Shown here piece after piece: positions 1,178 through 53,963 of a stretch of DNA of 64,000 bases. Numbering within the stretch: position 1 is the stretch's first letter; every line of letters begins with the position of its first letter. The translations under genes were made by a program, and so were the position numbers. Source of the DNA: Peptococcaceae bacterium UBA4068 (GTDB taxonomy: Bacteria; Bacillota; Dehalobacteriia; UBA4068); the NCBI GenBank assembly GCA_002382665.1, contig DFZA01000009.1, positions 403,602-467,601 of the forward strand. Reading direction: 5' to 3'. The notes beneath the pieces are model-generated. The model made no database searches and had not been told where the DNA came from. It saw only the letters and a program-made list of their open reading frames with translations.

Positions 1178-2449
1178 ATGCTAACCGCTATCGTAGGTAT
1201 CAATTGGGGCGATGAAGGTAAAGGCAGAATGGTTGATTTACTCTCTGCCGATTATCAGGTAATCATCCGCTATCAGGGAGGAAACAACGCCGGTCATACG
1301 GTGGTCAACGATAAAGGCAAGTTTATTTTAAATTTGCTGCCGTCGGGTATACTGCGTGACGATACCGTTAACGTTATGGGCAACGGCATGGTCGTTGACA
1401 TTGAACATCTGTCACAGGAGATCAAAACTCTGCAGGACAAAGACATCAAAATAACCCCCGCTAATCTGAAAATCAGCGATAAGGCGGTAATCTGTCTGCC
1501 CTATCATAAACAATTGGATGTTCTGGAAGAAGACCGGCTCAAGGACGCCAAATTCGGCTCCACCCGCCGCGGTATCGGACCTGTTTACGGAGATAAATAT
1601 CTCAAAAAAGCCATCCGCATGAATGACTTAAGAGACCGTCAAGCCTTGAGAAAAAAAGTTGAATCATTATCGGAATGGAAAGATTTATTGATTACCAGCT
1701 ATGGCGCAGCGCCTATCGATAGAGAAAAATTCTATCAATGGCTCTGCCAATATGGCGATATAATTCTACCCTATGTCTGTGATACCACAGCCTATTTGCA
1801 GCAAACCATTAACAACGGCAAAAATCTGCTGTTTGAAGCGCAGCTTGGCGCTTTGCGTGATATTGACTTCGGTATTTATCCGTTTACAACCTCGTCATCG
1901 ACGATTGCCGCTTATGCGCCCATCGGCAGCGGTATTCCCTTTAAAAAGATTGAGCATACCATCGGTATCATCAAAGCTTACTCCAGTTGCGTCGGCGAAG
2001 GCCCGTTCACCGCTGAGCTTTTCGGCGAACAGGGCGAATTATTACGCCAGGCCGGCGACGAGTACGGCGCCGCAACCGGCAGACCACGTCGGGTCGGCGG
2101 CATCGATCTGGTAGCCTCGCGCTACGGCTGCCTGATGCAGGGCGCAGACGAATTAGCTATGACCAAACTGGATGTTTTATCCTGCTTCGATCAAATACCG
2201 GTTTGCACCGCTTATGAGCTTAACGGGGAAATCATCAAAGACTTCTTTACCGACGAGCGCCTCAACAGGGCTAAACCCATATATCAATATATACCGGGTT
2301 TCAAACAGGATATCTCCCATTGCCGCAAGCCGGAAGATCTGCCCAAGGCTGCGCGCGAATATATCGAATTTATCGAAGAAAACGTACAAACACCGATCAA
2401 ATATGTATCGGTCGGAGCCAACCGCGATGACTATCTGGTAATGAAATAA
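1178..2449 (+). CDS. purA: Adenylosuccinate synthetase
   Basis: 423 aa with GINWGDEGKGRMVD P-loop, GNNAGHTV and GIGPVYGDK motifs. Confidence 0.93.
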   Translation: MLTAIVGINWGDEGKGRMVDLLSADYQVIIRYQGGNNAGHTVVNDKGKFILNLLPSGILRDDTVNVMGNGMVVDIEHLSQEIKTLQDKDIKITPANLKISDKAVICLPYHKQLDVLEEDRLKDAKFGSTRRGIGPVYGDKYLKKAIRMNDLRDRQALRKKVESLSEWKDLLITSYGAAPIDREKFYQWLCQYGDIILPYVCDTTAYLQQTINNGKNLLFEAQLGALRDIDFGIYPFTTSSSTIAAYAPIGSGIPFKKIEHTIGIIKAYSSCVGEGPFTAELFGEQGELLRQAGDEYGAATGRPRRVGGIDLVASRYGCLMQGADELAMTKLDVLSCFDQIPVCTAYELNGEIIKDFFTDERLNRAKPIYQYIPGFKQDISHCRKPEDLPKAAREYIEFIEENVQTPIKYVSVGANRDDYLVMK

Positions 2450-2496: not shown

Positions 2497-3768
2497 TCAG
2501 CTAATATTTAATTCATCTTCTTCAATTTCGGCCAAATCACCGCCCAGCAGTTCCACGCTGATATTTTCTTCAAGCTTTTCGACATTGCGCAGTTTACGGT
2601 TAATCGCTCTGGTACGAATACCAACCAGTTTGTCCAGATTCTGATTGGCTTGCTCCAAACGCTGTTGTGTTGCTTTTAATATCTCGTCAAATTTCTCAAA
2701 TTCTCCCTTAACCGCACCCAGTAACTGCCAGACCTCGGTGCTGCGTTTTTGAATAGCCAGCGTTTTAAATCCCATTTGCAAACTGTTAAGCAAGGCCGCC
2801 ATGGTACTGGGACCGGCAATGTTTACCCGGTATTTGCGCTGCAGCTCCTCAACCATGCCTCTGTTGATTACCTCGGCGTAAAGCCCTTCAAAGGGCAGGA
2901 ACATTACCGCAAAATCGGTGGTGTAAGGCGGGCCGATATATTTATCATGGATATCCTTGGCTTCGCTGCGAATAACTGTCAGCAAGCGGGCAACGGCTTC
3001 ATTGACTGCCTCTTGGGAGCCGCTCTCATAAGCATCCTGCAGCGCACTGTATGAATCACCGGGGAATTTGGCGTCGATCGGCAAATAAATATGCCCGCTA
3101 TCCTCCGCGGGCAGCCGGATGGCAAATTCAACCCTATTGGCGCTACCTGGGATCACTGCAACGTTAACATCATACTGCTCCGGCGTTAATATTTCTTCCA
3201 AAATAGCTTTAAGCTGCATCTCTCCTAAAATACCGCGGGTTTTAACATTCTTCAGCACTTTTTTCAGATCACCGACGCCGATAGCCAATGTCTGCATTTC
3301 GCCAAGCCCTTTATAAACCTGCTCCAATCGTTCGTTAACCAACTGAAACGATTGAGTCATCTTTTCTTCCAGGGTTTTTTGCAGTTTTTCATCAACTGTA
3401 GCCCGCATATCCTCCAGACGGCGATTGCTGTCTTCGCGGATATTGGCCAAATTAGTCTCCATGGTAGCACGGATATTATCGAGCTTTTGCTCATTGGTCA
3501 CTTCAAAAGTTTTAAAACGGTTTTCCAAATTAAGAAAATTATCCCGTTGAGTTCCGCTGATGATCTCACTGATATTGCGCATTGAGCTTTGCAGGTTATC
3601 GGTAACATCACTATGCAGACGCTCTTCGATACGCTGCAAATCCTTTTGTAGCTGCTCTATTTGCTGAGAACCGGTTTTTTCTTGGTTGCGGCGATTAATC
3701 AGAATAATAATTAACGTTATCAAACAAATGATAACCATTATTTGCAATAACAAAGAAATCAGATCCAT
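2497..3768 (-). CDS. rmuC: DNA recombination protein RmuC
   Basis: 423 aa with an N-terminal TM helix, a long coiled-coil region and a C-terminal RmuC nuclease-like domain. Confidence 0.7.
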   Translation of the reverse strand: MDLISLLLQIMVIICLITLIIILINRRNQEKTGSQQIEQLQKDLQRIEERLHSDVTDNLQSSMRNISEIISGTQRDNFLNLENRFKTFEVTNEQKLDNIRATMETNLANIREDSNRRLEDMRATVDEKLQKTLEEKMTQSFQLVNERLEQVYKGLGEMQTLAIGVGDLKKVLKNVKTRGILGEMQLKAILEEILTPEQYDVNVAVIPGSANRVEFAIRLPAEDSGHIYLPIDAKFPGDSYSALQDAYESGSQEAVNEAVARLLTVIRSEAKDIHDKYIGPPYTTDFAVMFLPFEGLYAEVINRGMVEELQRKYRVNIAGPSTMAALLNSLQMGFKTLAIQKRSTEVWQLLGAVKGEFEKFDEILKATQQRLEQANQNLDKLVGIRTRAINRKLRNVEKLEENISVELLGGDLAEIEEDELNIS

Positions 3769-4131: not shown

Positions 4132-4543
4132 GGGAAACACATTAATGTGTTTCCCTGAGACTGTGAAAAGGGTGGTCAGCGGGCTGAGAAACAAGCGAGA
4201 CCAGGCGGCCCAGCTGGCTTTTGCCTAGCAGCAAAACCAACAGCTGAGGCACATAGGTAAAACTCAAGATAAAATATCTTGGTTTTACCTCGGCGGTCGG
4301 AACCGGCGACGCCCTAAGGGGTCCCCGCGAAGCTAAGCCAAGCGAAGCAGCTTCGTGGGGTATCGGGCGCAGGCGACCTAGCTGATTTTTACCTTGCGGT
4401 AAAACCACAGCTATGCACTTGCTGCGCTGCTGCGCAGCTTCGCGTCGTATAAAAGATACGTCGAGAAGACGGTGATGACCTGGGCGACGTATCGCGAAGC
4501 TTATCGACACTCTGAGGGAAACACATTAATGTGTTTCCTTTTT
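4132..4543. repeat. Structured intergenic element, copy 1 (about 380 bp) bracketed by identical palindromic hairpins gggaaacacattaatgtgtttccc
   Basis: Hairpins at 4132-4155 and 4516-4538, the latter followed by TTTTT. The interior shares long conserved blocks with 16926-17134 and contains at least three extra hairpin modules. The antisense Arg-rich ORF 4142..4510 is judged spurious. Confidence 0.6.
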
Positions 4544-5833: not shown

Positions 5834-5846
5834 GAGGTGTAATAGT

Positions 5847-6713
5847 ATGGATTTTTTGCAAACTCTTGCGAGCGGCAAAACGCTGCTATTTGATGGCGCG
5901 ATGGGCAGTCTGCTCACGCAAAAGGGCGTCGACACCGGGACGAATAATAATATTACCGCGCCCGAAAAGGTCGCGGAAGTCCATCGCGAATACATTGAGG
6001 CCGGCAGCGATTGTATTATCACCAATACGCTGACGCTGAACAGTATCTATGCGTCCAAACGCGGCCTCAGCGACAATGATTGCGCTGAAGCTAACCGCGC
6101 CGCTGCGCGTGTCGCATTAGCAGCGGCAGCCGGTAAAGCCTTCGTCTTCGGTGATTTGGGTTCTACCGGCGAAATGCTCAAGCCTTACGGCACAGGCGAT
6201 AAGGAACAATTTTATCATGCGTATTGCCATCAAGCCGCCGCGCTGGCCGAAAATAAAATAGACGGCTTGATAATTGAAACCGTCTTTGATCTTGAAGAAG
6301 CGAAGATCATGCTGCAAGCCTGCCGGGATACCAGCAACTTGCCGGTGATCTTGTCTATGACCTTTGCCACAGCCGCCAAAGGCGGCAGAACGATTATGGG
6401 TAACAGAGCAGCAGAAATTGCTCAGGCCGCGGCGGCAGGCGGCGCGGTAGCTGTCGGCGCCAATTGCGGCGACCTGACGCCGGAAGAATTCGTGCCGGTT
6501 ATTAAAGAAATGCTGCCGGCCGGATTACCGATCATTATCCAACCCAATGCCGGAAAACCACGTTTAGAGAACGGTATTACCTGCTATGACTTGACAACCG
6601 AAGAATTCGCCCAAGGATTGCTGGAGTGCCATAAAGCCGGAACGCAGCTACTGGGCGGCTGCTGCGGGACTACGCCGCGGCATATTGCCGCAATCAAGAA
6701 ATTATTGGTTTAA
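5847..6713 (+). CDS. Homocysteine S-methyltransferase domain protein (MetH N-terminal-like / MmuM-like)
   Basis: MDFLQTLASGKTLLFDGAMGSLL ... GANCGDL ... LGGCCGTTPRHIAAI. Start refined to the ATG at 5847 (GAGGTG RBS 7 nt upstream); the ORF-track start at 5814 lacks an RBS. Confidence 0.75.
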   Translation: MDFLQTLASGKTLLFDGAMGSLLTQKGVDTGTNNNITAPEKVAEVHREYIEAGSDCIITNTLTLNSIYASKRGLSDNDCAEANRAAARVALAAAAGKAFVFGDLGSTGEMLKPYGTGDKEQFYHAYCHQAAALAENKIDGLIIETVFDLEEAKIMLQACRDTSNLPVILSMTFATAAKGGRTIMGNRAAEIAQAAAAGGAVAVGANCGDLTPEEFVPVIKEMLPAGLPIIIQPNAGKPRLENGITCYDLTTEEFAQGLLECHKAGTQLLGGCCGTTPRHIAAIKKLLV

Positions 6714-15997: not shown

Positions 15998-16071
15998 GGC
16001 GCCATAGCCAAGTGGTAAGGCAGAGGACTGCAAATCCTTTACCCCCAGTTCAAATCTGGGTGGCGCCTCCA
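15998..16071 (+). tRNA. tRNA-Cys (GCA)
   Basis: GGCGCCA...TGGCGCCTCCA with a 7-bp acceptor stem, GCA anticodon in the loop CTGCAAA, a GTTCAAATC T-arm and an encoded CCA. Confidence 0.85.
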
Positions 16072-16074
16072 AAT

Positions 16075-16161
16075 GCCGGAGTGGCGGAACTGGCAGACGC
16101 ACAGGACTTAAAATCCTGCGGTAGCAATACCGTACCGGTTCGACCCCGGTCTCCGGCACCA
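16075..16161 (+). tRNA. tRNA-Leu (TAA)
   Basis: 87 nt, GCCGGAG...CTCCGGCACCA, anticodon loop CTTAAAA, long variable arm, GGTTCGACCCC T-arm. Confidence 0.85.
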
Positions 16162-16863: not shown

Positions 16864-16899
16864 AAATTACCACCTCCCGCTAAATAAAATAAATAAGGA

Positions 16900-17151
16900 G
16901 CGGTTTACCGCCCCTACAGATTGTTAAAAAAGTGGCCAGCGGGCCAAGAAACGAGCGAGACGAGGCAGGGGCGAAACCGGCGACGCAGGCGACCTAGCTG
17001 GCTTTTACCTTACGGTAAAATCTCAGCTAATGCACTTACTGCGCTGCTCCGCGGCTTCGCGGCGTATTCAAGATACGTCGAGGAGACGGGGACGACCGTA
17101 ACGACGTATCGCGAAGTTTATCGACACGCTGAAGGGGCGGAAAACCGCCCC
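16900..17151. repeat. Structured intergenic element, copy 2 (about 230 bp), between the 134-aa gene and rpsI, bracketed by inverted hairpins gcggtttaccgcccc / ggggcggaaaaccgcccc
   Basis: Block-wise alignment with 4166-4517. Shared segments include gcgacctagctg..ttttacctt.cggtaaaa, cgtat..aagatacgtcgag.agacgg and cgacgtatcgcgaag.ttatcgacac.ctga.gg. Confidence 0.6.
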
Positions 17152-17161
17152 TTGTAAACAA

Positions 17162-36212: not shown

Positions 36213-36360
36213 TTTTTAACCTCCTCTTCGCCCGTATCATGACGGACATTTCTCAGCGGAAAAACCCTCGCGGCGCATCCGCAAAGCAACCTCCCGCCTC
36301 ATAGCATTAAAGTTTGTTTTGTCGGGCGGGCGTTAAACCCGCCCGACAATTAAAATTAAT

Positions 36361-41101: not shown

Positions 41102-43600
41102 ATGATCCAGAAATTCGCCGTCACAGGTATGACCTGCGCTTCCTGTTCAAGCCATGTTGAAAAAAGCGTCCGTAGCCTTTCCGGCACGGAAAATGTGACC
41201 GTCAATCTCTTAACAAACAGCATGACGGTCGAATATAACGATGCTGTTTTAAGCAATAGCGATATAATCAGCGCCGTTGCCAAAGCCGGTTATGACGCAA
41301 GTCTGCCAGAAAACACCCGTATAAAAGCGCCTGCGTCAGAAGAAAAAAAAGTTGATATTAACAGTGAACAGCTAAAAAACATGCAACTACGCTTGATAGT
41401 ATCTATAATTTTTCTGATTCCATTGATGTATATATCGATGGGACAGATGGCTAATCTTCCTCTGCCTGCTTTTTTGAGCAGTATGGAAAACGCCATAGCT
41501 TTTGCGCTGACGCAATTTCTTTTATGTCTGCCGATCTTATATGTTAACAGAAGTTTCTACACCAGAGGCTTCAAGTCTCTGTTCCACGGCGCTCCCAATA
41601 TGGACTCCCTGATTGCTATTGCTTCCACCGCCGCTGTTGTCTACGGCGTTTATGCCATATATAGGATAGGATACGGACTGGCAATCGGCGATATGCAGTT
41701 AGTTGAATCATACCGTATGAACCTATATTTTGACGCCGCCGCCATGATTCTGACACTGATCACCGTTGGCAAATATCTGGAAACAAAATCAAAAGGAAAA
41801 ACCGGTGAGGCAATTGCCCAGCTGATTAATCTGGCGCCTCAAACTGCTACAGTTGAACGTAACGGCAATTTACTGGAGGTTCCTATCGATCAGGTCATGG
41901 CGGGAGAAACGGTTTATGTAAAACCCGGCGCTGCCATCCCTGTGGACGGTACTATTTTGTCAGGCAACACCAATGTTGACGAATCAGCTATCACCGGCGA
42001 AAGCATACCGGTCTATAAAAGTATTGACGATACGGTAATCGCCGCTACCATCAATAAGACCGGTTTTATTAAAATCAAAGCTACCCGAGTTGGCGATGAT
42101 ACCACTTTTGCGCAAATCATTCGCCTGGTTGAGGAAGCCGGAGCCAGCAAAGCGCCGATTGCCCGGCTGGCGGATAAAATCTCCGGCGTTTTTGTGCCGA
42201 TAGTAATTATTATCGCCGTAATTACTATCATCGTATGGTTGTTAACCGGCGCTTCGTTTGAGTTCGCTTTTTCTTGCGGCATCAGCGTGCTGGTCATTTC
42301 CTGCCCTTGCGCGCTAGGGCTTGCCACACCGGTGGCGATCATGGTAGGTACCGGCAAAGGGGCGCAGTCAGGCATCTTAATTAAATCCGGTGAAGCGCTG
42401 GAGACAGCGCACCGCATAAACAGTATTGTATTAGACAAAACCGGTACTATCACCGAGGGCAAGCCGGTTGTAACCGATATTAAAGCCTATCAAAATACTT
42501 CCGAGCAATTACTACAAATTGCCGCCGCACTTGAAGCGGGCAGTGAACATCCGTTAGCCGCGGCTATTATTGAATATGCCAATCAAAAAGGCTGCCGTAT
42601 AACGGCAGCGCAGAATATCGAAGCTATTACCGGGCAGGGAATCAAAGGTGAAATCGACGGCAAAATATATATTGCGGGCAATCAGCGCCTACTGGCCGAA
42701 AACGGTATTAAAACAGATATTGCTATTAATGACATTAATGATTATGCCCAAAACGGTAAGACGCCGTTGCTCTTTGCCGACGGTCAACAGCTTATCGGCA
42801 TTATTGCCGTAGCCGATACCGCCAAACCTACCAGCAAGGAAGCTGTTGAGCGTTTTAAAAAGCTGGGTATCGAAGTCATCATGCTGACCGGCGATAATTA
42901 CAATACGGCGCAGGCTATCCAAAGACAGCTCGGTATCGATACCGTAATCGCCGAGGTTCTGCCTGCCGATAAAGAAAAAGAAATAACTAAGCTGCAAAGC
43001 GCGGGTAAGACTGTGGCTATGGTCGGCGACGGTATCAATGATGCACCGGCTTTGGTAAAAGCCGATGTCGGTCTGGCTATCGGCGCAGGAACAGATGTTG
43101 CCATCGAAAGCGCCGATATCGTGCTGATGAAAAACAATCTATTGGACGCTGTGACTGCCATTCGGCTCAGTAAAGCAGTCATACGCAATATCCGTCAGAA
43201 CTTATTTTGGGCCTTTTTCTATAATATTCTCGGCATACCTATCGCCGCCGGTGTGTTTTACAATCTGCTGGGTCTAAAACTAAACCCGATGATCGGCGCT
43301 GCCGCCATGAGTTTTAGCAGTGTTTTCGTAGTCACAAACGCTTTAAGATTAAGAAGGTTTAAATCAGAATCCACAAGAAAGGAGTCCGAAAATATGCAGA
43401 TTACCATGAAAATCGAAGGCATGAGCTGCATGCATTGCCAAAAACGCGTCAGCGACGTCTTAAACGCCGTACCCGGTATAAAAGCGGAAGTGGATTTAGC
43501 AAATAATGCCGCCTATATTACCTCAAATACTGCTATTGATATAAACGAGTTGAAAAAAGTTATCGAAGACGCCGGATATCAAGTTACCGAGGTGGAATAG
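41102..43600 (+). CDS. copA: Copper-translocating P-type ATPase with N- and C-terminal HMA domains
   Basis: GMTCASCSSHVE (HMA), CPC motif (SCPCALGLATP), DKTGT, GDGINDAP, and a C-terminal second HMA (GMSCMHCQKRV). Confidence 0.92.
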   Translation: MIQKFAVTGMTCASCSSHVEKSVRSLSGTENVTVNLLTNSMTVEYNDAVLSNSDIISAVAKAGYDASLPENTRIKAPASEEKKVDINSEQLKNMQLRLIVSIIFLIPLMYISMGQMANLPLPAFLSSMENAIAFALTQFLLCLPILYVNRSFYTRGFKSLFHGAPNMDSLIAIASTAAVVYGVYAIYRIGYGLAIGDMQLVESYRMNLYFDAAAMILTLITVGKYLETKSKGKTGEAIAQLINLAPQTATVERNGNLLEVPIDQVMAGETVYVKPGAAIPVDGTILSGNTNVDESAITGESIPVYKSIDDTVIAATINKTGFIKIKATRVGDDTTFAQIIRLVEEAGASKAPIARLADKISGVFVPIVIIIAVITIIVWLLTGASFEFAFSCGISVLVISCPCALGLATPVAIMVGTGKGAQSGILIKSGEALETAHRINSIVLDKTGTITEGKPVVTDIKAYQNTSEQLLQIAAALEAGSEHPLAAAIIEYANQKGCRITAAQNIEAITGQGIKGEIDGKIYIAGNQRLLAENGIKTDIAINDINDYAQNGKTPLLFADGQQLIGIIAVADTAKPTSKEAVERFKKLGIEVIMLTGDNYNTAQAIQRQLGIDTVIAEVLPADKEKEITKLQSAGKTVAMVGDGINDAPALVKADVGLAIGAGTDVAIESADIVLMKNNLLDAVTAIRLSKAVIRNIRQNLFWAFFYNILGIPIAAGVFYNLLGLKLNPMIGAAAMSFSSVFVVTNALRLRRFKSESTRKESENMQITMKIEGMSCMHCQKRVSDVLNAVPGIKAEVDLANNAAYITSNTAIDINELKKVIEDAGYQVTEVE

Positions 43601-43602
43601 CA

Positions 43603-43760
43603 CAGCGTATCGCGAAGTTTATCGACCCGCTGACAGACTGAGAGAAAAGAGCCAAGTCCTAGGCGGCAGCCAAGGCCAGACAGGGAGCGTATACGGTAAT
43701 ACGTGACCTGACTGGAAGCAGGCTGCCAACAACGGAATTGGCCTTTTGTCTCGGTCTGAA
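43603..43760. repeat. Partial/degenerate copy 3 of the structured element: 3'-terminal block (agcgtatcgcgaagtttatcgacccgctga) fused directly to a diverged, short element-like sequence
   Basis: 43604-43633 matches the last 30 nt of copies 1 and 2. The following actgagagaaaag and cgtatacggtaatacg resemble the 5' start and internal hairpin of copy 1. Confidence 0.45.
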
Positions 43761-43795
43761 AAGGCAGCTATCATTTGATAGCTGCCTTAGTTTTT
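43761..43795. terminator. Bidirectional terminator between convergent copA and clpX (13-bp perfect stem)
   Basis: aaggcagctatcatttgatagctgccttagttttt. Confidence 0.55.
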
Positions 43796-52262: not shown

Positions 52263-53432
52263 TTAATTGGGCGTATACGGGCTCATTTTGCGTAACAGGG
52301 CAACTTTTTCTTCCAATACATCAACGGTGTGGAGTATTTGTTGCTCAGTTACGCCCAGCCCGAGTGAAAATCTTAAAGAACTGTCAAGCCAGGGGTTTTG
52401 GATACCCATCGCTTGTAAGACATGAGAAGGGCTAAGTGATCCCGAAGAACAGGCCGAACCGGTAGAACAGCAAATGCCCGCAGAATCCAGATAGAGGAAT
52501 AAAGCTTCGCCTTCAATATAATTAAAGGCTAAATTGGCGTTATGGGGCAGACGCTGTTCAGGGTGCCCGTTTAAGCGGCATTGGTCAATACGGCTGAATA
52601 TCTGCGATACAAATAAATCACGCAGCCTTTTTTGCTCTTTCATTTCCTCACGCCAACCTTTGGCGGTAAGCTCGGCGGCTAAGCCAAAGCCAAAAATACC
52701 CGGCATATTTTCCGTGCCCGAACGCAGCTTCTTTTCCTGACCGCCGCCATAAGTCCTCCTGCCTAAACGGATGCCGTTACGTTTATATAACGCGCCTGCT
52801 CCTTTGGGGCCGTTGATTTTATGAGATGAACATGTCAGCATATCCACATCCAGTTGCTGAACGTCTACTTCGATCTTACCTACGCTTTGCACTGCATCCA
52901 CATGGAACAGCGCACCAGCTTCGTGGGCTATTGCCGCTAACTCCTTAATTGGATTGATCGTACCAACCTCATTATTGGCATGCATAATGCTGACTAAAAA
53001 AGTATCTTCCCTGATCGCCGCTTTGAGTGTCTCCGGCTGTACCATACCGTATTGATCAACATCAAGGATGGTAACATCATAACCCTCGCGCTTTAACTGC
53101 TCGCAGCTTTCCAGTATAGCATGGTGCTCTACCGCCGAAGTAATTAAGTGCTTTTTGCTTTTTTCTGACGATGCCCCGCCAAAAAGAGCAATATTATCGG
53201 CCTCCGTACCGCCGCTGGTGAAGAAGACATCATTAGTATCGACATTAATTAAAGATGCCACCTGCTCACGTGCTTTCTCCAGATAACCTTTGGCGTCTCT
53301 GCCGATAGCATGGGCGCTAGAGGGATTGCCGAAGTGATTACGCATATAATCGGCCATGGCGTCAATTACTTGGGGAAACATCGGCGTAGTCGCCGCATGA
53401 TCCAGATATATTCTTTCGGTCAACAAAATCAT
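52263..53432 (-). CDS. Cysteine desulfurase (NifS/IscS/YrvO-like, class V aminotransferase)
   Basis: 389 aa, DHAATTP..., PLP-Lys motif SSHKINGPKG, active-site Cys in CSTGSACSSGS. Confidence 0.88.
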   Translation of the reverse strand: MILLTERIYLDHAATTPMFPQVIDAMADYMRNHFGNPSSAHAIGRDAKGYLEKAREQVASLINVDTNDVFFTSGGTEADNIALFGGASSEKSKKHLITSAVEHHAILESCEQLKREGYDVTILDVDQYGMVQPETLKAAIREDTFLVSIMHANNEVGTINPIKELAAIAHEAGALFHVDAVQSVGKIEVDVQQLDVDMLTCSSHKINGPKGAGALYKRNGIRLGRRTYGGGQEKKLRSGTENMPGIFGFGLAAELTAKGWREEMKEQKRLRDLFVSQIFSRIDQCRLNGHPEQRLPHNANLAFNYIEGEALFLYLDSAGICCSTGSACSSGSLSPSHVLQAMGIQNPWLDSSLRFSLGLGVTEQQILHTVDVLEEKVALLRKMSPYTPN

Positions 53433-53447
53433 CTCCTGTACTATTAA

Positions 53448-53963
53448 TTAACGTGTTTCTTTATTTACCAAATCCGCCAGCGTATGTGAATCCAAGACCT
53501 CGGCAATCGCTTTTTGGATTTCTTCCCAAAGATAGCCGCTACCGCAATAATCTTTTTTACTGCAGGCGGTTGCTTCACTCTCGCTGCTGCAGTCCTTATT
53601 TCTGCAAGCGTTTGCTTCACCCTCGCTACTGCAATAATCTTTTTTTTTGCAGGAAGTTGTTTCATCTTCACTGGTGCAAACAGCTAAATTAAGCGGTCCT
53701 TCCAAAGCTCTGAAAATCTCCCCGACAACTATATGCTGCGGGTCTCTGGCTAATGAATATCCTCCCTGGGCTCCGCGGCTGCTGACAATAATCCCCGCTT
53801 TTTTCAGCGGCGCCATCAGCTGTTCAAGATAACCTTCGGAAATCTGTTGGCGAAGGGAAATCGCAGATAATGTCACGGGTTTACCTTGATAATTGCAGGC
53901 GATATCCAATACTGCCCTGAGACCGTACCTGCCCTTGGTAGATATATTCATTTTGCGCCTCAT
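53448..53963 (-). CDS. Rrf2 family transcriptional regulator (CymR/IscR-like) with an expanded Cys-rich tandem-repeat insertion
   Basis: N-terminal wHTH (GRYGLRAVLDIA...GGYSLAR), then CTSEDETTSCKKKDYCSSEGEANACRNKDCSSESEATACSKKDYCGSG. Gene pair arrangement resembles cymR-yrvO. Confidence 0.8.
   Translation of the reverse strand: MRRKMNISTKGRYGLRAVLDIACNYQGKPVTLSAISLRQQISEGYLEQLMAPLKKAGIIVSSRGAQGGYSLARDPQHIVVGEIFRALEGPLNLAVCTSEDETTSCKKKDYCSSEGEANACRNKDCSSESEATACSKKDYCGSGYLWEEIQKAIAEVLDSHTLADLVNKETR

Follow-up and report, generated by a model that had tools for sequence, protein, structure and literature searches.

The intergenic region described here lies between mop, a TOBE-domain gene, and rodA in a 64-kb window, a term used throughout for the whole stretch of DNA that was analyzed (64,000 nt). 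The mop-rodA spacer measures 549 nt and contains, in order, a stem-loop, a 360-nt element and a stem-loop once more. The first-pass annotation, based on the sequence alone, had described a core of about 350 bp bracketed by identical palindromes, and this description holds: the element, designated copy 1, spans positions 4156-4515 and is flanked on both sides by the stem-loop GGGAAACACATTAATGTGTTTCC(C). The perfect 24-nt palindrome GGGAAACACATTAATGTGTTTCCC occupies positions 4132-4155, and its first 23 nt recur at 4516-4538, where base 24 is a T that starts a run of TTTTT; these are the only two occurrences of the palindrome in the entire 64 kb. The GC content of copy 1 is 55%, compared to 45% for the window, and its predicted folding energy (-152.5 kcal/mol, z -5.7) is well beyond that of shuffled sequence. 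Four core blocks (A-D) and four optional hairpin modules (M1-M4) were delineated by comparison with the additional copies described below, and the resulting features of the locus are as follows.

4132-4155, no strand: left copy of the target duplication, the mop terminator stem-loop GGGAAACACATTAATGTGTTTCCC; no T tract follows, and the stem-loop is single in the empty site of L041
4156-4515, + strand: element copy 1, 360 nt; at the orthologous site missing in L041 and present in L031; no ORF in common with other copies
4156-4175, + strand: outer left end TGAGACTGTGAAAAGGGTGG, abutting the target duplication, from a 5'-end comparison of 12 copies
4176-4207, + strand: block A (TCAGCGGGCTGAGAAACAAGCGAGACC...), which supplies the inner left inverted repeat and, in the closing helix, the 5' strand
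4208-4293, + strand: optional hairpin modules M1 (4208-4249) and M2 (4250-4293), in copy 1 and L031 only
4294-4312, + strand: block B, small core hairpin CGGTCGGAACCGGCGACGC
4313-4370, + strand: optional hairpin module M3, in copy 1 and L031 only
4371-4444, + strand: optional module M4, also in copy 2, L003 and L027; missing in the orthologous L031 copy
4445-4487, + strand: block C, apical core hairpin GTATAAAAGATAC with its 3' strand
4488-4515, + strand: block D (CGTATCGCGAAGCTTATCGACACTCTGA), which supplies the right inverted repeat and, in the closing helix, the 3' strand; better conserved than any other block in the family
4516-4543, no strand: right stem-loop copy followed by TTTTT, the sole copy still resembling an intrinsic terminator

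Sequence blocks of copy 1 had also been reported from two other places in the window, and both were recovered. A second copy (copy 2) lies in antisense orientation to the rpsI operon and shares blocks with copy 1, the last ~106 nt of the two being 85% identical, and the 28-nt terminal block of copy 1 is repeated at 17105-17132 and 43606-43633. The tally for the 64 kb is hence two full copies and one partial copy, located as follows.

16897-16915, no strand: distal duplicate of the rpsI terminator stem-loop, reading GGGGCGGTAAACCGCTCC and then TTATTTATTTT on the - strand
16916-17132, + strand: element copy 2, 217 nt (outer left end, A, B, M4, C and D), scoring 102 bits; missing in L036-L040
17133-17153, no strand: duplicate of the rpsI terminator stem-loop adjoining the rpsI stop codon
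43606-43633, + strand: solo right end consisting of block D alone, 5 nt past the stop codon of an 832-aa ORF (41102-43600)

The three hairpin modules that had been counted as extra in copy 1 relative to copy 2 map to 4208-4249, 4250-4293 and 4313-4370, close to where they had originally been placed, and correspond to optional modules of the family. No ORF is conserved among the copies, which differ by indels and reading frames, and the translation of the copy 2 ORF did not match any of 5.8 billion proteins when used as query, in agreement with the earlier statement that no protein is shared between copies.

To define the family beyond the window, public genome and metagenome-contig collections were scanned with the terminal block. 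Twelve further copies were identified in one genome and several metagenomes, and the ends of the element could be defined from them. Within the genome collection, a 20-nt end block returned 16 matches, among which the sole true homologue belongs to Peptococcaceae bacterium UBA5752 (locus L003); the remaining 15 were dismissed as chance matches, given that ~9 are expected for 19 specified bases in 596 Gb. The metagenome contigs provided eleven true matches, representing ten further distinct copies or fragments. For this accounting, L021 was taken as two copies (L021a and L021b, within 2.5 kb of each other), L020 and L023 were merged into one locus, and L031 was treated as the ortholog of copy 1. 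The GC content of the hosts ranges from 37 to 62%, and the element stays at ~55-65% GC. A covariance model of the minimal element yielded no additional copies in the window, the fetched loci or the syntenic DNA of relatives (~33 kb, holding zero copies of the element). Similarly, a blastn search in distant mode with copy 2 as query drew a blank among both the plasmids (72,556) and the phage records (50,697), a scan of viral contigs returned no match to the element, and its sequence appears in none of the papers covered by a literature search. Short-read Logan assemblies of the same organism (SRR636597) provide indirect evidence on copy number, since the ends of contigs L033 and L034 and the start of contig L042, which together cover both window sites, fall inside the element and thereby point to many near-identical genomic copies.

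The aligned copies range from 126 to 360 nt in length, and the minimal form is a 126-nt rod-like imperfect palindrome represented by seven copies with a mean column identity of 89%. It comprises block A (TCAGCGGGCCGAGAAACGAGCGAGACCAGGC), the small hairpin B, the apical hairpin C, which reads GGCGTAT-loop-ATACGTC, and block D (CGTATCGCGAAGTTTATCGACACGCTGA). The ends of the element are 28-bp imperfect inverted repeats (TCAGCG...GAGAAAC / GTTTATCGACACGCTGA), the left one reading TCAGCGGGCCGAGAAACGAGCGAGACC and the right one being the reverse complement of CGTATCGCGAAGTTTATCGACACGCTGA; block A and the reverse complement of block D are identical at ~20 of 28 positions, and this correspondence is kept in all full copies. 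In the consensus fold, A and D pair into an interrupted 20-bp helix and the whole unit forms a rod of 38 pairs. The helix closing all copies, TCAGCG/CGCTGA, is contributed by the 5' and 3' ends and has changed on both sides to TTAGCG/CGCTAA in L021 and to TAGCGGG/CCCGCTA in L024. The inverted-repeat ends are almost perfectly conserved over hosts of 37-62% GC, and the interior is variable. The compensatory change originally perceived between copies 1 and 2 (tCAGC/GCTGa against cCAGC/GCTGg) did not survive the comparison, as it pairs the 5' block with M4, a module missing from the 126-nt minimal copies.

Outside block A is an extension of 17-20 nt (TGAGACTGTGAAAAGGGTGG in copy 1, consensus T-N-AGACT-N-TC-AAAAAG), with a (T)NAGAC motif at the left end in most copies. 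Between copy 1 and L031 this outer left end is 65% identical and block A is 100% identical. The extension resembles the reverse complement of the right end, which accounts for the inverted likeness between TGAGACTGTG and TCAGAGTGTC described in the first-pass annotation; the likeness is real (7 of 10 positions), but the two sequences are located just inside the hairpins, as termini of the element, and not outside them. Judging from its sequence, the outer left end looks like a degenerate second (tandem) left inverted repeat.

The length variation among copies stems from the optional modules, with M4 present in copy 2, L003 and L027, M1, M2, M3 and M4 in copy 1, and M1, M2 and M3 in L031. M1 and the first half of M4 are paralogues in which changes on both sides of the stems keep them paired. 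The presence of M4 in copy 1 and its absence from the orthologous L031 copy indicate that modules are gained or lost in place. M1+M2 and M4 are each bounded on both sides by GGCG (4203-4207/4290-4293 and 4371-4375/4441-4447, with equivalents in copy 2 and L003). Module turnover could have involved slippage at GGCG, recombination at the same motif, or else a nested insertion that duplicates 4 bp. This layout is reminiscent of the pneumococcal BOX element (boxA-boxBn-boxC), which is also modular, with conserved ends that pair and internal hairpin modules that vary in number, and in which the presence or absence of modules leaves the closing helix undisturbed (PMC3049150). The two differ in that their sequences are unrelated and their hosts belong to different groups, and terminator duplication is not reported for BOX.

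Empty sites in related genomes, whose comparison had been suggested as a test of mobility, were identified for both full copies in the window. At the copy 1 site, the mop-rodA spacer of L041 (RodA 92% identical) is 176 nt long and presents one stem-loop, AAAAGGGAAACAC-TCTTG-GTGTTTCCCTTTT, the sequence beyond the mop stop codon including AAAAGGGAAACACTCTTGGTGTTTCCCTTTTAATTTGC. At the copy 2 site, the spacer between rpsI and the next gene spans 53-59 nt in L036-L038 (S9 88% identical) and L039-L040 (S9 93% identical), in which GGGGCGGTTTACCGCCCCTTGTTTTTT occurs once after the rpsI stop codon; the single rpsI terminator of these relatives is GGGGCGG-TTTA-CCGCCCC followed by TTGTTTTTT. The window instead carries at this site a stem-loop, the reverse-oriented element and the stem-loop again with its T tract. 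Copies 1 and 2 are mobile insertions, and the initial suggestion of a hairpin-targeting non-autonomous mobile element is thus directly supported. Furthermore, since the empty sites hold one stem-loop each, the bracketing palindromes are not parts of the element but duplicated host terminators, with a duplicated stem-loop of 24 bp for copy 1 and of about 19 bp for copy 2.

The same flanking pattern, each time with a different hairpin, was observed in L003 (~26 bp), L017 (29), L030 (27) and L021a (43). The flanking duplications hence span 19-43 bp and are different in sequence at every site, which argues that the element targets structure and not sequence; their length varies with that of the target stem-loop. 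The target stem-loops comprise six unrelated sequences without a sequence consensus, and nearly all insertions lie ~50 nt or less from a stop codon. A whole stem-loop is duplicated in 7 of the 12 copies for which both junctions are available (6 of 11 independent sites). One-sided hairpins are seen on the right only in L021b, L026 and L027 and on the left only in L024, and L020 displays the half-stems GGGCAA and TTGCCC, one on either side of the element. The 43-nt duplication in L021a encompasses the hairpin and 18 nt beyond it; the ribosome-binding site of the next gene is included in the duplication and the downstream gene therefore keeps it. This copy (~1230-1460, minus strand) lies between a gene for a Cys-rich peptide (...GGCGECQTSCQSACKTSCTVANQDCEKK), which by eye resembles a SCIFF (six-cysteine) precursor, and the following gene.

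Among five pairs of flanking hairpins with informative loops, three are direct (L017, L030 and L021a) and two are flipped, that is, present as the reverse complement. The loops of copy 2 (16897-16915 versus 17133-17153) read TTTT and TAAA, and that of the empty site TTTA; those of L003 (6080-6103 versus 5838-5861, approximate positions) read AAAT and TATTT. An inverted duplication as the general origin of the flanking hairpins was considered and rejected on this count of three direct versus two flipped pairs.

The reading that best accommodates these results, to which we assign a probability of roughly 0.7, is that the copies constitute a previously undescribed family of MITEs (non-autonomous DNA transposons) moved in trans by a transposase that targets stem-loops or cruciforms. 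The element is small, has no coding capacity and ends in terminal inverted repeats, and it occurs in multiple dispersed copies with presence/absence polymorphism. A target duplication is documented by the empty sites, and is atypical in spanning 19-43 bp and a whole stem-loop. The main features of known bacterial MITEs, such as MITEPye1, Correia, RUP and Nezha, are in this respect shared: these are small, gene-less elements with terminal inverted repeats, fold into rods, and are intergenic, multi-copy and present or absent between relatives (PMC11578231, PMC10969869, PMC3049150). MITEPye1 in particular derives from an insertion sequence of the IS1182 family, with a duplication of 4 bp (PMC11578231). 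Known MITEs, however, duplicate a fixed 2-9 bp, as opposed to a target stem-loop of 19-43 bp, and are usually AT-rich, whereas the element analyzed here exceeds most of its hosts in GC content. Nothing similar is mentioned in a 2024 review of MITEs in prokaryotes (PMC10969869).

The first-pass annotation had labeled the element as MITE- or PATE-type, and only the first half of this label can be maintained. IS200/IS605 PATE and REPIN families, which are moved as single-stranded DNA by Y1/HUH transposases (TnpA/RAYT), generate no target duplication, lack terminal inverted repeats and insert on the 3' side of a fixed motif of four or five nucleotides. Membership in such a family, in which the right end might carry a TnpB-type guide RNA scaffold, would fit the highly structured nature of the element, its sharply defined right end, the solo right end at 43606-43633 and the association with hairpins, and the element is akin to IS200/IS605 PATEs and REP/REPIN-RAYT systems in being hairpin-rich, extragenic and non-autonomous. 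This reading is nonetheless contradicted by the target duplications, which here involve whole stem-loops; in addition, the ends are inverted repeats, the left flanks have no motif in common and no target tetranucleotide is conserved 5' of the left end. No tnpA, tnpB or RAYT gene was seen at the examined loci or among the window proteins, and no HEARO or IS605-orfB RNA family was matched in Rfam. We consider this origin extremely unlikely.

A closer parallel to the proposed MITE family is provided by IS1272 and TnSha1 of the IS1182 family, which insert into stem-loops or terminators without sequence specificity (PMC5678879 sections 22, 24; PMC4923244). As with the six unrelated targets reported here, their targets are mostly intrinsic terminators located just downstream of genes, with variable cut positions (PMC5678879, PMC4923244). 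IS1272 is also found with its left end tandemly duplicated, as IS1272L (PMC5678879 section 21), and the left end of the present element appears to be duplicated in the same manner. The likeness concerns targeting and the layout of the ends, and the element carries no transposase gene. Moreover, insertion of IS1272 or TnSha1 costs the target its stem-loop, in part or entirely, and leaves no duplication, whereas the present element usually duplicates the stem-loop. This latter outcome matches pathway b of the published model, where attack on the cruciform at its 5' feet leads to duplication of the complete stem-loop (PMC5678879 section 29).

Under the MITE hypothesis, a transposase encoded elsewhere would pick its target by shape, recognizing the stem-loop or cruciform of an intrinsic terminator. 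Both strand transfers would take place at the 5' feet of the extruded stem-loops or close to them, leaving a single-stranded, self-folded stem-loop at each junction, and gap repair would copy both hairpins to yield one full stem-loop on each side of the element. Nucleolytic loss of one single-stranded hairpin would generate the one-sided copies, and loss of both would produce the outcome seen for IS1272. By analogy with these systems, the enzyme may be a cruciform-targeting DDE transposase of the IS1182/IS1272 kind. Because the T tract is retained at the distal hairpin alone, the element is probably transcribed within the 3' end of the upstream gene. Several observations sit uneasily with this model: the L021 duplication overshoots the stem-loop by 18 nt, the four one-sided copies and the half-stems of L020 show that the geometry of insertion is not uniform across sites, and a simple staggered cut does not predict the flipped loops found in 2 of 5 informative pairs. 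Loop flips may have arisen if, during gap repair, synthesis switched templates from one single-stranded hairpin to the other. The ORF lists of L003, L017, L018 and L021, the Pfam calls for the loci and 10 window proteins revealed only housekeeping genes; neither a transposase nor a full-length insertion sequence with matching ends was present in the window or the fetched loci, and no further element ends were found in either.

The flipped loops and the result of the transposase search could also be read as the footprint of a retro-mobile or template-switching element, in which an RNA or single-stranded copy is inserted at terminators by target-primed synthesis and the terminator hairpin stalls or primes that synthesis, giving rise to duplications of variable length. 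The observed duplications do vary, from 19 to 43 nt, and the 3' end of the element is precise and highly conserved, with a more variable 5' region. Yet the left end is defined as well, bearing the (T)NAGAC motif in most copies, the ends are inverted repeats with no 3' tail, and the limits of the duplications follow the feet of the stem-loops, as the DDE cruciform model would have it. The examined loci contain no reverse transcriptase near the element. We know of no bacterial precedent for such a mechanism and regard it as very unlikely.

A different class of explanation places function in the transcript. The rod would here be a structured RNA, acting in cis as a 3'-UTR module or as a small RNA (for instance, a protein-binding rod or transcript stabilizer), with its spread by transposition being secondary and the conserved end blocks forming an RNA helix with conserved internal loops. 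Several properties of the family are in line with this notion. The consensus rod of 38 pairs contains conserved non-Watson-Crick internal loops, the better fold is that of the + strand and not the - strand in 6 of 7 minimal copies, module hairpins stay paired through changes on both sides, the end blocks hardly differ between hosts of 37-62% GC, and the element is placed where co-transcription would occur. On the + strand, G-U cells outnumber A-C/C-A cells by 17 to 2, with 7 of the 17 coming from one invariant pair, and this excess hints at some selection on RNA. Paired changes at both ends are, however, equally expected for the ends of a transposon, and modules come and go between copies. Close relatives lack the element at both sites, with nothing in its place. 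Copy 2 is antisense to its operon, and an apparent orientation bias (10 of 11 sense to the upstream gene) was withdrawn as many of the sites lie between convergent genes, so that no such bias is established. At the orthologous loci of the window and L031, identity is 91.5% for the element, compared to 93-98% for flanking intergenic DNA and 90% for mop, and purifying selection on the element is not seen.

The searches against Rfam point in the same direction. At the gathering threshold, the whole window yielded only two tRNAs and an S10-Clostridia leader, and at E≤10 both copy regions returned only noise of 16-18.5 bits, which concurs with the earlier failure to match the element to tmRNA, 6S RNA, group II intron domains or a T-box. 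No promoter was found inside copies 1 and 2. With neither an Rfam match nor a promoter, and with conservation no better than that of neighboring intergenic DNA, the proposal of a new ncRNA family is not supported, and a selected RNA function appears unlikely.

The MITE interpretation can be extended, more speculatively, to regard the family as the natural record of a shape-reading transposase that joins at the feet of cruciforms and regenerates a terminator on each side, resulting in a self-insulating insertion. The same chemistry, combined with different repair of the hairpins, would explain duplications, single hairpins, IS1272-style deletion and flipped loops alike; in its full form we deem this extension improbable. 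In a more radical variant, transposition may pass through an intermediate, made of RNA or by template switching, for which terminator hairpins provide the priming site; alternatively, the rod may be a domesticated 3'-UTR RNA module.

To our knowledge, structure-directed transposition into terminators has been observed only for a handful of elements from staphylococci, and the structure-targeting transposons described so far are limited to IS1272, TnSha1 and some other members of the IS1182 family. The family reported here supplies naturally occurring insertions, with empty sites to match, that duplicate the stem-loop in full, an outcome that is predicted by the cruciform-attack model and yet is not the one observed for IS1272, and offers a second, independent view of how structure-directed transposases cut. 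What is new is a MITE family with an unusual and mechanistically informative insertion signature, which overturns nothing. On a practical level, the elements interrupt short-read assemblies and give rise to tandem terminators and to 3' UTRs that are long and structured, and comparative screens could take them for novel ncRNAs or riboswitch-like motifs. Should the transposase be found, its ability to target any terminator and restore it on both sides would make it an attractive low-disruption integration tool.

Other repeats and structured features were noted in the window. The solo right end is abutted by a second palindromic element, which stands before the terminator of the 832-aa ORF (41102-43600).

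43634-43759, + strand: second rod-like palindromic element, 126 nt, whose ends read CAGACTGAGAGAAAAG...CTTTTGTCTCGGTCTGA; abuts the solo right end and is followed by a terminator at 43761-43795

The stretch comprising this element, the solo end and the terminator (43600-43790, 191 nt) folds at -100 kcal/mol (z -10.3). The left arm and apical hairpin of the second element weakly resemble those of the main family, to which it appears to be distantly related, and it is single-copy in all the sequence examined. Elsewhere, two convergent genes at 1178-2449 and 2497-3768, identified through synteny with L034 as adenylosuccinate synthase and RmuC, have between them a 30+30-nt inverted repeat without spacer (2446-2505), which contains no element and probably serves as a bidirectional terminator. 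Three overlapping 55-nt direct repeats, spaced 42-45 nt apart and 69-80% identical, occur at 53537-53678, just upstream of the ORF at 52263-53432. The nearest sampled relatives of the host have protein S9 sequences that are 88-93% identical, and the two tRNA genes and S10-Clostridia ribosomal leader, located at 15998-16158 and 36228-36310, fit a Clostridia/Peptococcaceae-like host.
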